Source of the DNA: Nitrososphaerota archaeon
GTDB taxonomy: Archaea > Thermoproteota > EX4484-205 > JAAOZP01
Reading direction: 5' to 3'
NCBI GenBank assembly: GCA_011605725.1
Contig: JAAOZP010000012.1
Location: 1-64,000, forward strand
Length of the DNA stretch: 64,000 nucleotides
Shown: positions 25,379 to 31,539 of the stretch, in pieces
Layout of the letters: each line of letters opens with the position of its first letter
Numbering within the stretch: position 1 is the first letter of the stretch
Program-made: the position numbers and the translations under genes
Notes under the pieces: model-generated
Told to the model about the DNA's origin: nothing
What the model saw: only the letters and a program-made list of their open reading frames with translations
The model's database searches: none

Positions 25379-25574
25379 AAGCGCGCGCACTAGGAACGTT
25401 AGATTTTGAGAGAACGCGCGCGATGTGGCATGTATCAGCAGGAGGATCGTAGGGGCATAGTCTGTACTTTTTATAATTGTAGCCGCCCTAATGTTAAGGT
25501 TTTTAGCACACTGGAAGGCGTAGACTGGGAAAGGAAGATAAGGCTTAAATCCTCTTTACCTGTTTACTTCTCTA

Positions 25575-27143: not shown

Positions 27144-27908
27144 TTATCTCATGTAGGAAGCTATGAGCGTTATCCCCCTCTTCTTTGCTTCCTGCTCTGC
27201 CGAAGGGTGTACGTAGTAACCAAACATCAGCTTATACACGTTATTGGGAACAGTTCTCTTCACCTTTTCGGCTAATTCATCGAAGCCTTCCACATCGCTC
27301 GAATATATTCTGGATCTAGTTTCTCCCAGAATGATTATCTTCGCGCCTCCTCTGTTGCCCTCTCCGTACAGGTTAATCTCCAATTCCTCATTGTTGACCT
27401 TAATGAACTTTCTAGTTAAATTCTCCAATTCTATGCCCTCATGCCTGTAGAGCCATCCAGGTACAACAACCCTAGCTATGTCTTCGAGCCCGAATCCGAT
27501 TGTGTCCGATAGCCTGCCGACATGCCTGGAGAGTTCCTGTAGGGCTCCTTCAGTCCTCGCTTGGGCCTCAGCAAGCTTCTCAACAGCGTGCTCTAAACTA
27601 TCATGCCTCTCAGCAAGCTTCTGAACAGCACGATCTAAACTATCATGTCTTTCAGCAAGCTTCTGAACAACACGCTCAAGGCCATCATGCCTCTCAGCGA
27701 GCTTCTGAATAGCGCGCTCCAGGCTACCATGTCTCTCAGCAAGCTTCTGTATGGCCTCAGTAAGTCTAGCCTGCCCCTCTTCAAGTCTAGCCTGTCCGCT
27801 CCTAAGATCCTCAATGCCGAGTAAACCCACCACGGCATAGCGGAACTCCTCATCCTCCTTCAGCAATGTGAGCATCTTACGCTTGAAGTCGGCTGTAGTC
27901 CTAGCCAT
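27144..27908 (-). CDS. Archaeal coiled-coil repeat protein with C-terminal PD-(D/E)XK-like domain (DUF3782-like architecture)
   Basis: LLKEDEEFRYAVVGLLG N-terminus, heptad repeats, IGFGLED, ELEINLYG...GETRSR. Confidence 0.75.
   Translation of the reverse strand: MARTTADFKRKMLTLLKEDEEFRYAVVGLLGIEDLRSGQARLEEGQARLTEAIQKLAERHGSLERAIQKLAERHDGLERVVQKLAERHDSLDRAVQKLAERHDSLEHAVEKLAEAQARTEGALQELSRHVGRLSDTIGFGLEDIARVVVPGWLYRHEGIELENLTRKFIKVNNEELEINLYGEGNRGGAKIIILGETRSRIYSSDVEGFDELAEKVKRTVPNNVYKLMFGYYVHPSAEQEAKKRGITLIASYMR
27567..27797. repeat. Intragenic tandem repeats: about 4.5 x 42 bp plus about 2 x 21 bp
   Basis: Units begin at about 27567, 27609, 27651, 27693 and 27735 (QKLAERHDSLxxAV); GQARLEE/GQARLTE at 27762-27797. 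Confidence 0.9.
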
Positions 27909-28335
27909 TATACTACCAGTTAATTCCGGTTGGAATGCGGCTTATTAAATTTACGGATTACTGGAAACGCGGCTTAAGACATTCAACTGCGTTCGCGGTA
28001 CGCACTCAAGCGAAAGAATCTCTAGTGTCTCTCATCGAGAACTACTTTGCCGATATAGATTGGAATATACGTGCGCTGCTGTGTGATACAACTCTCGCAA
28101 TATTTCTGAATAAAAGATTTTCTACATTTCCACCATTTGACATGGGTGCTTAAAAATGCTTGATTAGAATCATATTTAGATGGAGGTTGTCCAACAAGCA
28201 TGGAAAAACCTTATTTTCAGCCTTCACCCATATTTTCCAGCTATGGTTAGGCTTGTTCCAACCCTAGCGCGCGCTTCGTAACAGTTGAGCATCCCTTTGA
28301 ACCACGGTTTTTCTTCCATTGACAGTACGCGCGCT

Positions 28336-28407
28336 TAAGAGATGGTTGAACTCGTATTTGATTTGTCCTCTGGTTACTGGTATTCTAGGCATGTTTGTGT
28401 TGAACGC
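28336..28407 (-). pseudogene. About 70-bp fragment of the pyrimidine-dimer glycosylase gene
   Basis: Near-identical to about 30311-30381 (PRIPVTRGQIKxEFNHLL); flanked on both sides by GCGCGC-type motifs. Confidence 0.85.
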
Positions 28408-28418
28408 TAGCACGCGCT

Positions 28419-28506
28419 GGGCTTCCCCACTTTTAAAGAGCTTGTCTAAAGTTGAAAGCTCTTCTCTTCGATCCACAAATCTTACAATCATGATTGTAAG
28501 AATCAT
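28419..28506 (-). pseudogene. N-terminal fragment of an archaeal ATPase-family gene
   Basis: RFVDRREELSTLDKLFKSGEAQ; second partial copy at about 30699-30745; 22-bp palindrome at 28480-28501 at the gene start. Confidence 0.7.
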
Positions 28507-28939
28507 GAATCTACAATATACAAACGTTGCTAAAGACTTGCTGCAGCACGAAAAAACACATGATTCCGATCCGGTTTCTTAACCTTTAAAAAAATGTCAT
28601 GATCCGCGCGCTTTCTTTCTGCTTACTTAAAATCCTCTTTAAACATGCAGGCGGAAAGTATTTCACCCGTAGCAGAGTCTGCGAAGATGTCTACGGCAAG
28701 GGCCATTATACGCTCCTCTCCAGGGTTAAGCAAGAGTATTGCCCTTACGCCTCCTACAGGCTTCCCCCCTGTCTTTCACTTCATCTATATCAATATTGTT
28801 TCTAAAGTCTGTGCCCTCGAGAAATATGTCTCCTATTCTAATGAACACCTTCTTAACCCTATTATCAACCCCTATCGGAATCCTGCCCTCAAACTTTTCC
28901 ATAGCTTTTGCCTTCGACACCGGGATTTCGTCTTCTAAA

Positions 28940-29610
28940 AACTTTCTTACTATGTTTCCGGGAATTTTGTTTTCACTCGATTTATCCATGAGAACGTCAT
29001 TATTCGACACATCATTTTCCTCGATAACGTTTTTCGAAGACTGGCGGAAGCAGACACCGGAATACCGATTATCTATTATCCTGTTTCTAGAAACAGTGTT
29101 GTTTAAAGATTTAAAAAAGTAAAGACCATGGCCGTTTTTAACACCGCTGTTTTCAGAAACCACATTATCTGAAGAATAATATAGGTCAACGCCATCGGCC
29201 GTATAGGCAATATGGTTCTTGAAAATCCAATTATTATTACTTTTCCACAGATAGATGCCACAGTAATTATTCTCGCTAATCTCGTTATCAGAAACAACAA
29301 TGTTTGAAGAATTGCTAATAAAACACCGAAGTCGAAATTTTTTATCTTCAGATCCCTAATCGTAACGTTCCTAACCTCTCGCAGGCGGAGTCCGAATCCT
29401 GCGTCCCCAGCCTTCTGATCCCCCTTACCCAGTAACGAATATCCGTTTCCATCTATCACCACATCGCTTTCTTGAATAGTGATCTTGCCGTGAATATCCT
29501 CAGTAAAAGTATAGGTGTTTCCAATTCTTTTCACGGGTATTGTTGACTCAAGTAAATCTCTAATCTTACCACCTTTAACATAAAACGTCGTTTTTTCATC
29601 CCGCCCAGCC
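28940..29610 (-). pseudogene. NosD/right-handed parallel beta-helix protein, frameshifted and truncated
   Basis: TYTFTEDIHGKITI..VVIDGNGYSL, NVTIRDLKIKNFDFGV, then Asn-rich repeats (SNIVVSDNEISEN, NNTVSRNRIIDN) in a second frame. Confidence 0.7.
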
Positions 29611-29619
29611 TTCTCAAAT

Positions 29620-29942
29620 AAGAGAAGGGCGGAGGAAGGCTTAGAGGAGAAGATAACTCCCACGATCTGCTTAGCCGAGGTCTATGCGAAAACCATCAAG
29701 GTGGAAAGCGAAAAGCTTGCTGAAAAACAAAGGAGGTTCATCAAGGAAAGAAGCATCATCCTTCACTGGATGAAGCGATCGCTATTGAATCCGCTAGGCT
29801 AGATGTGGTTATGAAGAAGAAGGCTAAGGGCTGGAGGCTAGCTGACTCAATAGTCTATTCAACAGGATTAGTTAAGAAGGCTAGGATAGTGACTGGTGAT
29901 GAACACTTCAAAAACCTGGAAAACGCGCTTTTTATCGGATGA
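29620..29942 (+). pseudogene. VapC PIN toxin remnant (5' end missing, frameshift near 29765)
   Basis: Own translation: TPTICLAEVY.../LDEAIAIESA...WRLADSIVYSTG...IVTGDEHFKNLENALFIG*. Confidence 0.7.
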
Positions 29943-30087: not shown

Positions 30088-30187
30088 ACAATACCGGCGT
30101 CTAGGCTACGCTTTCACGGCTAGGCTGGTAACGCAGGAGGAGATGGGTGTTGTAGCCGGGGTTAGCCTCCTGCACAGCGTGCGCTAG

Positions 30188-30622
30188 CTATTTCGATTTT
30201 TCCCATTCTTCTATTGGGCCTTCAGTAACGTAGAAGATCGGATGCTGCTGGATTATCTTCATTCTCCTTAGCCTAATGTATAGCTCTTCATCTCTTTCTG
30301 AAAGCTTCTTTAAAAGATGGTTGAACTCGTGTTTGATTTGTCCTCTGGTTACTGGTATTCTAGGTATGCTTGTGTCGAACGTTCTTATTTTTGCAAGGTC
30401 AAATTCGTAACTTCTCCTTTCCCCCTCCAAGTATATGTGGTAGAGATAGGTGCCTACGTATAGAATTGGGTCCGCAGTTCTTCTGAACCTGATTAGTTGC
30501 GGGTGATTCACGTATCTTTCCGTCTTCCCCTCTAAGACTTTTTGAGCTAGAAGCGCTTCCCTCCAGACAGCTACAAGCCCTTTGGCGTCGAGGTACTTTG
30601 GATGGATTGACCAAAGACGCAT
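30188..30622 (-). CDS. Pyrimidine dimer DNA glycosylase / endonuclease V family
   Basis: MRLWSIHPKYLDAKGLVAVWREALLAQKVL, YVNHPQLIRF. Confidence 0.9.
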   Translation of the reverse strand: MRLWSIHPKYLDAKGLVAVWREALLAQKVLEGKTERYVNHPQLIRFRRTADPILYVGTYLYHIYLEGERRSYEFDLAKIRTFDTSIPRIPVTRGQIKHEFNHLLKKLSERDEELYIRLRRMKIIQQHPIFYVTEGPIEEWEKSK

Positions 30623-30762
30623 TTTACTGAACTTTTTCTAATAAGTATTTATTTAACTTTTCTGACTCCTTCTATTTGTTCAATTAAGCGCGCGCTGCTG
30701 TCTAAAGTTGAAACCTCGTCCTTTGATCCACAAATCTCACAATCAGCGCACTAGCGCGCGCT

Positions 30763-31428: not shown

Positions 31429-31539
31429 GCTTAAGCGTGCGCGAAAAACATATGATTCCGATTTGGTTTCTTAGCCTTTAAAAAGATATAGCGCGCACAC
31501 ACACTATGTTTTTAAAGAACAATGTTAAGCAACTATCTC

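Follow-up and report, generated by a model that had tools for sequence, protein, structure and literature searches.

A fixed GC palindrome at the joints of gene remnants and deletions in an archaeal genus

A 72-bp scrap of a pyrimidine-dimer DNA glycosylase (PDG) gene lies between two short GC palindromes in the window, by which we mean the whole 64,000-nucleotide stretch of a Nitrososphaerota contig analysed here. We put the probability at about 60% that this scrap is the leftover of an eroded second ATPase/PDG/MtaB-like block, in which each rejoining of the DNA left a new palindrome by way of tailed ends. On this reading the gene block would have been broken several times, with pieces lost and one short piece flipped, and every rejoining would have added a palindrome of short, fixed sequence, (T)A(GC)3-5T(A), where none had been. 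We show that the palindromes at these joints are new sequence and that in two sister genomes this filler also closes deletions wherever they fall, within genes as well as elsewhere. Reading the palindromes as junction filler is well supported; the step that assigns their writing to a particular enzyme and RNA is a hypothesis. The features on which the argument rests are listed in Table 1, where G000 denotes this genome (2.23 Mb, 93% complete) and G002 its sister species.

Table 1. Positions of the scrap, its neighbours and the deletion joints (window positions unless a contig is named)
Feature	Position	Strand	Remark
Secreted-protein gene duplicate: promoter and first ~11 codons	28109..28262	+	ends at the next motif
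Palindrome CTAGCGCGCGCT	28264..28275		joint between signal-peptide gene stub and next fragment
MtaB-like methyltransferase gene start, probable fragment, ~50 bp	28276..28325	+	weakest part of the map
Left junction filler TACGCGCGC	28326..28334		missing from every intact PDG gene here
PDG fragment, 72 bp	28335..28406	-	codons 81-104 of the 144-aa PDG gene
Right junction filler CTAGCACGCGCT	28407..28418		one-transition variant of CTAGCGCGCGCT; missing from every intact PDG gene
Archaeal ATPase gene, first ~24 codons (MIVRFVDRREELSTLDKLFKSGEA) and upstream region	28419..28551	-	repeat and G002 match
44-bp piece common to 31444-31487	28552..28595	+	89% identity; GCGCGC 3-10 bp after both copies
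GCGCGC	28606..28611		joint to the next module, 28613-29633
Intact pyrimidine-dimer DNA glycosylase gene, 144 aa	30188..30622	-	scrap counterpart is 30310-30381
TAAGCGCGCGCT	30686..30697		in place of ~70 bp of ATPase stub kept in G002
Deletion joint, 1164 bp lost, filler CGCGCGCG	G000 C1:248351-58		long-allele frames of 147 aa at left edge, 550 aa at right
Deletion joint, 606 bp lost, filler (GC)5TA	G000 C1:69442-55		280-aa frame at both edges
Deletion joint, 854 bp lost, filler AGCGCGC	G000 C11:28356-64		298-aa frame at both edges
Deletion joint, 949 bp lost, filler TAGCGCGCGCTA	G002 C16:68961-73		430-aa frame at both edges
Deletion joint, 457 bp lost, filler GCGCGTGC	window 25847-55		109-aa frame at left edge, 123 aa at right
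AEP3	genome C7:378954-379793		downstream of dinB and radA

The scrap matches its counterpart in the intact gene without gaps at 67 of 72 positions (93%; BLAST E 4e-24), and this is its top non-self match in the whole 2.23-Mb genome. A sequence-only reading had reported a glycosylase match of this length between two motifs, and the report is borne out, its coordinates being correct to within 1-2 bases. Homology ends sharply on either side. At the left edge the scrap reads ..CAG TACGCGCGC/TTAAGAG where intact genes read GAAAGCTTCT/TTAAAAG (the slash marks the edge), and at the right edge it reads GTTGAACG/CTAGCACGCGCT GGGC.. where they read GAACG/TTCTTATTTTTG. A continuation of PDG homology past the left motif, to 28282, was tried with tblastn and rejected, the extension being gapped and insignificant. 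The Pfam Pyr_excise profile matches about residues 1-79 of the protein and the scrap falls outside it, leaving the requirement for a catalytic N-terminal domain unmet; therefore no active enzyme could be encoded. The 72-bp piece is a gene remnant, not a gene.

The intact gene of the window meets the family criterion (Pfam PF03013, Pyr_excise: 65 bits against a cut-off of 23, E 8e-18). Together with full-length orthologues in G002 and G013 of the same genus and in G024 of the same order, which are 91%, 88% and 82% identical to it, it forms a set of four intact PDG genes, none of which has GCGCGC at either edge position. The suggestion that the palindromes are not ancestral would have failed had an intact paralogue carried GCGCGC natively at both positions. 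We found no such paralogue in these four genomes, and all four intact homologues have ordinary coding sequence at both points. The suggestion is upheld a second time by the deletion joints described below, where palindromes of the same type occur and the undeleted state in the sister species is motif-free.

The gene near 30 kb had also been taken as the parent of the scrap. As a sequence match this stands, but literal direct parentage does not, as other copies are equally distant: the scrap agrees with the window gene at 67/72 positions, with a piece on contig C16 at 66/73, and with the genes of G002, G013 and G024 at 66/72, 68/72 and 65/72, which rules out the 30-kb gene as its direct source. 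Given that the scrap is about equally far from all copies, it is an old, independently decayed paralogue rather than a recent copy. The piece on C16 (425-618) is the sole other PDG paralogue and amounts to a truncated C-terminal stump. It reads through the left edge as the intact gene does and is cut by GCGCGCGC 15 bp past the right edge; TAGCGCGCTA comes after its stop codon. It is a second, independent truncation of the same gene, likewise ending in the motif.

Just downstream of the PDG stop in the window (30092-30175) we noted a stretch of ~84 bp with a hairpin (GCAGGAGG..CCTCCTGC). Copies with 79-91% identity are scattered over several unlinked loci in at least nine genomes of the genus; Rfam gives no match for the stretch, and it is not a tRNA.

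The surroundings of the scrap form a mosaic. Between 28.26 and 28.61 kb the order is secreted-protein stub, motif, MtaB-like piece, motif, PDG scrap, motif, ATPase start, 44-bp piece and motif. Over 170 bp the stub shares 87% identity with the beginning of an intact gene that lies in inverted orientation on G002 contig C49, and that gene has no motif and simply continues where the window reads CTAGCGCGCGCT. On the other side of the scrap, the ATPase stub begins past the right filler CTAGCACGCGCT, and the G002 homologue runs on as coding sequence. Positions 28443-28490 match the ATPase stub at 30699-30745, and 28411-28545 are 88% identical to G002:C2:5107-5240, where a longer ATPase stub adjoins the intact PDG gene. 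The MtaB-like piece has the thinnest support, namely 81% identity over 37 nt between 28274-28310 and C16:729-764 (E 9e-5 in a small search). In C16 and in G013 (locus L003) the gene immediately downstream of PDG is MtaB-like, so that the piece would be on the expected side of the scrap but inverted; since the match is so short, the inversion remains a tentative point, inferred from sequence similarity alone.

Given that PDG has the ATPase as its neighbour in G002 and the MtaB-like gene in C16 and G013, the window block keeps its neighbours on the correct sides, and intervening sequence has been lost at three joints. A second, differently eroded version of the block lies at 30.19-31.49 kb and has a shorter ATPase stub, which also ends in TAAGCGCGCGCT. 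The evidence thus supports the view that the scrap is part of an eroded block consisting of an ATPase start, a PDG piece and an inverted MtaB-like piece, with a palindrome at every joint. Beyond the last of these palindromes, module 28613-29633 is 95% identical to G002:C49:1648-2672, where GCGCGC stands 24 bp further out; the breakpoints of the module differ between the two genomes, both with the motif. The scrap is therewith a compact example of the phenomenon, in that three joints, three unrelated gene scraps and one flipped piece can be set against intact references.

On the minus strand, the three joints within 28264-28506 create a chimeric open frame of 80 aa. It begins with the ATPase ATG, behind the promoter of that gene, and continues through the PDG scrap in the native PDG frame. 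The native-frame reading may have arisen by chance, at about 1 in 3 per joint. Elsewhere in the neighbourhood, a 254-aa coiled-coil gene (27144-27908) contains five tandem 42-bp (14-codon) repeats at 27526-27777 (..QKLAERH[DG][SG]LE[RH]A[VI]..). At 25552-25572 the comparison with G002:C2:~1510 shows a same-length replacement in otherwise collinear sequence, CCGCGCGCGCTC in G002 and CCTGTTTACTTC in G000, which is a small patch and not an indel.

The palindrome itself is abundant and unevenly distributed. GCGCGC occurs 39 times in the window against 8.2 expected (100 shuffles, largest 18), an approximately five-fold excess; most copies lie at 24.0-35.5 kb, with about 25 at 24.0-31.5 kb. At this local density we estimate that a boundary would fall within 6 bp of a motif by chance in about 4% of cases, and two boundaries in about 0.2%. 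Genome-wide, G000 has 471 runs of (GC)3 or longer, of which 282 have three units, 154 four and 32 five. Their consensus is T-A-(GC)n-T-A, with A at -1 in 58% and T at -2 in 42%, mirrored on the other side, and the flanks beyond are without signal. While 13% of these runs would be expected outside open reading frames, 61% are found there; other GC-rich 6-mer palindromes follow the coding fraction. Decayed copies differ mostly by CpG transitions. A AGCGCGTGCT variant at 1138-1150, beside the gene at 1195-2535, was considered as a special signature and dropped, the transition classes (26, 23 and 12) being those of plain CpG decay.

Across the 17 species of the genus, AGCGCGCGCT occurs 118, 88, 70, 33, 32, 18, 16, 6, 3 and 3 times in ten and not at all in seven; reversed-pattern controls gave 0-3. 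In a sample of 400 genomes of the phylum, a clear excess of the motif was seen in a few unrelated lineages only. Our survey thus shows that the motif is limited to part of the species within the genus, and that a few unrelated lineages of the phylum also have an excess. Some scars are common to G000 and G002 at orthologous sites, and many scars show transition decay. Full-text literature searches for the motif strings, and for GCGCGC together with palindrome and archaea, returned no published description of these palindromes. The scars are real and lineage-specific, and no published account of them has been found.

The strongest evidence on what the palindromes are comes from the comparison of 819 kb of G002, 80-95% identical to G000, with the whole G000 genome. 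Among 274 ends of alignable blocks, 60 lie within 10 bp of a (GC)3+ run in either genome and 42 when G000 alone is considered; the baseline, at random non-ORF positions of G000 alone, is 2.2%. We then defined clean large indels as those with at least 100 bp in one genome and at most 40 bp in the other. Perfect (GC)3-5 stands at the short-allele joint in 8 of the 24 such indels, and a variant one or two transitions away in 3-4 more. At these motif deletions the long allele is motif-free at both edges and often has a single open frame across both (Table 1). Motif deletions occur in both the G000 and the G002 lineage, and the process was therefore active after their split. About half of the large deletions are motif-free, and the one at C3:174466 is a plain microhomology deletion. 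The scrap had been put forward as the clearest internal evidence that the palindromes are not ancestral. This rank it does not keep; cleaner cases are those in which an open reading frame has suffered a deletion filled with (GC)4-5 and the orthologue is intact and motif-free, as at C1:248351-248358, C1:69442-69455 and C11:28356-28364 of the genome.

The same comparison brought up an AAA-type ATPase gene (C7:110977-110978 against G002:C7:13277-14857) with an in-frame insertion of 1579 bp (..GTGK/C...HN/T..) in G002 only. This looks like a presence/absence polymorphism of an intein.

The first alternative to be weighed is that a tiny mobile palindrome, akin to the GC clusters of yeast mitochondria, inserts at many sites, and that recombination or slippage between two copies then produces deletions and inversions with one copy left per joint. 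Simple insertions of the motif in otherwise collinear sequence do exist (8 among the 171 indels of 6 nt or more), some of them flanked by duplications of 5 bp (CTCCG-TAGCGCGCTA-CTCCG) or 8 bp (GATTAAAG-GCGCGC-GATTAAAG), and any two copies would serve as direct as well as inverted repeats, which would permit both the deletions and the flipped 50 bp at 28276-28325. However, each deletion would then need two prior insertions precisely at its edges, and for the 8-12 motif deletions the undeleted genome is motif-free at both edges, with no intermediate carrying two motifs seen. Nor are simple insertions (8) commoner than motif deletion joints (8-12) within the same 819 kb, and no mover for a unit of 6-12 bp was found in G000, neither a Y1 transposase nor an IS630-type DDE gene. 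We therefore regard a mobile palindrome as unlikely, though it survives better than the readings that follow.

It is less likely still that the palindromes are excision footprints of a cut-and-paste transposon of the IS630/Tc1-mariner kind with GCGC.. terminal inverted repeats and TA target duplications, each footprint consisting of TA, a few end bases, their complement and TA. Such footprints are palindromic by construction, and TA flanks around cores of 3+3, 4+4 or 5+5 would fit what is seen. Yet the assembly holds no repeated element with GC termini, the repeats found being paralogous large-protein genes, and target duplications vary (3, 5 and 8 bp) where a fixed length would be expected. 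Moreover, the core persists at joints that have lost hundreds of flanking bases, and resection would have removed the footprint first. Searches of G000 (93% complete) detected no Y1 transposase (Y1_Tnp, PF01797), for which control genomes gave matches, and no DDE_3 gene (PF13358). This last argument is weak, as metagenome-assembled genomes often lose insertion sequences and the incomplete assembly limits the search.

About as unlikely is the idea that the palindrome is the crossover site of an integron-like site-specific recombination that inserts, removes and flips cassettes. The motif does bracket whole genes and toxin-antitoxin pairs at 24-35.5 kb, and G000 and G002 differ in which modules they have, the breakpoints being at motifs. 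Against this, the position of a joint within a gene is arbitrary, and the cuts in homologous modules differ in place from genome to genome. Conservation extends over no more than 10-12 bp, too short for a tyrosine-recombinase site, and the expected recombinase beside the array is lacking, the sole Phage_integrase-family gene being on another contig (C17). Chance, ancestral sequence or an assembly or library artefact can be set aside as highly improbable: these are metagenome assemblies and GC-only palindromes could in principle be linkers, but the roughly five-fold enrichment over shuffles, the scars shared by G000 and G002 at orthologous sites, the transition decay of many scars, the seven sister species without copies and the same joints in independent assemblies all speak against it.

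We thus return to junction filler written at tailed ends. After a break, both 3' ends would gain an identical short tail, 5'-TAGCGC(GC)-3' or part of it; this is inferred, no enzyme activity having been shown. Because GCGC is self-complementary, such tails could pair with each other, in several registers, to give TA(GC)3TA, TA(GC)4TA or TA(GC)5TA once the joint was filled and ligated. A staggered break filled in before joining would produce the short target duplications around some simple insertions. The constant sequence, the palindromy, the variable core, the optional TA and the arbitrary position of the joints together make the same tail on both ends the simplest explanation.

What would write the tail is the weakest step. 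A candidate is a stand-alone archaeo-eukaryotic primase-polymerase, here called AEP3, whose activity has not been shown. It may copy (G)CGCUA, just 5' of a conserved stem-loop in an RNA-like element for which expression has not been shown either. That a primase-polymerase with its own structured RNA writes TAGCGC.. on both ends, the self-pairing tails then joining any two, is a tentative proposal that we hold to be possible rather than probable. If true, this would be telomerase-like, RNA-templated end joining on a primase fold, and would explain the scars, the gene scraps and the rapid erosion and shuffling of accessory genes.

G000 has three archaeo-eukaryotic primase (AEP) genes. The short gene on C7, which nearly all relatives share, is presumably the replicative PriS. 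The second, a long gene on the minus strand of the window at 1195-2535, encodes a primase-like protein of 446 aa that is 40% identical to the short one, has a long C-terminal extension, gives no Pfam match and occurs in most but not all of the genus. It was considered as a lead and abandoned, its 3' flank being unconserved in relatives and itself another scar. That scar, TATAGCGCGTGCT, is decayed and lies at the 3' end of the gene, where synteny with G002 breaks. AEP3, the third, meets the superfamily criterion (31.7 bits to PF01896, cut-off 26.8), and the residues of its catalytic DxD, SGxRGxH and third-Asp motifs (D112, D114, S162, G163, G166, H168 and D220) are invariant in five homologues.

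AEP3 was detected in motif-bearing genomes only. Its frame is intact in G000, G002, G016 and G006; G007 and G012 have a version with a TAG codon in frame, and in G008 only fragments remain. Searches of G009, G010, G013 and the seven genomes without motif copies did not recover the gene. G009, with 16 perfect motifs and no AEP3 found, counts against the link. The ratio of decayed to perfect scars is 0.49 in G016, ~0.56 in G000, 1.0 in G007, 1.3 in G008, 1.75 in G009 and 10 in G010. It rises where AEP3 is broken or was not found, which is what would be expected of a lost writer. The association of the palindrome with AEP3 and the RNA-like element comes down to essentially one clade, however, since the genomes are related and do not count as independent cases.

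The conserved element follows several AEP3 copies and has a 9-bp stem with a GUAA-capped inner hairpin, directly 5' of which stands (G)CGCUAAAAAC. Covariation supports the fold, in that both partners are changed in 7 pairs (shuffles: 2.0; 0 of 500), and the share of paired cells is 91%, compared with 35-45% when partners are slid. A covariance model of the element found it in the motif-bearing clade only, namely in G000, G002, G016, G006 and G010, and weakly in G007 and G009. The element matches nothing in Rfam, and neither Rfam families nor tRNAs were detected when 20-38 kb and the AEP3 loci were scanned. Part of the putative template is paired in the predicted fold, and its sequence differs from copy to copy (GAGCGCUA, GCGCGCUA, GCACGCUA, GGGCUA). 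Behind the intact AEP3 of G000 stands a truncated variant of the element, ACGCUAAAAACA, which lacks the stem. Among five motif-rich genomes outside the genus there was no match to the RNA model, and matches to the AEP3 profile were weak and confined to the primase core.

Other copies of these sequences were also observed. At C12:18270-18950 a second, broken radA-AEP3 pair lies right after CCAAGCGCGCGCTCGG and is followed by the only complete element of G000. Further AEP3 fragments occur in G002, G016, G006, G007 and G008, so that the radA-AEP3 module resembles, in its behaviour, DNA that has been copied and eroded time and again. A decayed scar (..CAGGGCTGCC GTGCGCAC TGGTCC..) cuts through a further copy of the structured element, at C4:116993-117112.

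Each of the nearest known phenomena differs from these scars in a defining respect. The fillers known from end joining, such as the N-nucleotides of NHEJ and the products of polymerase-theta-type alternative end joining, are random or copied from nearby DNA, and archaea have microhomology-mediated joining as well as 'polymerisation across discontinuous templates' by the primase PriSL. As with such filler DNA, the bases described here are foreign to both partners and stand exactly at deletion or rearrangement joints, and the small target duplications are consistent with staggered-end fill-in. In contrast to those fillers, a single fixed self-complementary sequence has been reused hundreds of times, and Ku (PF02735) was detected in 0 of the 17 genomes of the genus.

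A fixed short sequence written onto DNA ends is also what telomerase healing, interstitial telomeric repeats and DRT10 have in common with the scars, and the structured RNA-like element has a short stretch beside a stem that may serve as a template. Bacterial DRT10 is described as a protein-primed antiviral defence (bioRxiv 10.1101/2025.10.16.682844). In our case, however, no reverse transcriptase (RVT_1, PF00078) was detected in any of the 17 genomes and the candidate enzyme is primase-like, and the product is a single palindrome joining two ends, not a tandem array capping one.

Yeast mitochondrial GC clusters are 30-40 bp long, can be sorted into sequence classes that have defined target sites, and are regarded as mobile. 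They resemble the scars as short GC-rich palindromes in AT-richer spacers, at deletion and recombination breakpoints and with lineage-specific abundance, whereas the unit described here has 6-12 bp and stands at joints whose ancestral edges were motif-free. REPs are imperfect palindromes of 20-40 bp with a cognate Y1 transposase (RAYT); the cyanobacterial HIP1 (GCGATCGC) spreads by substitution and is frequent within genes. The palindrome described here is, like REP, abundant, short and mostly between genes and, like HIP1, a highly iterated 8-mer. Unlike REP/REPIN, its conservation is confined to T-A-(GC)3-5-T-A and no Y1 transposase was found in G000. To our knowledge, neither REP nor HIP1 acts as filler at deletion joints.

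Should the scars be what they look like, an archaeal clade rejoins its DNA with a fixed, recognisable stamp at each joint. Past breaks, deletions and inversions, and the capture of fragments, could then be read from the stamps in natural genomes, and the erosion and reshuffling of accessory-gene islands would be accounted for. The stamps would also point to an activity without a described prokaryotic counterpart, that is, sequence-specific tailing of DNA ends, possibly primase-like and RNA-templated.
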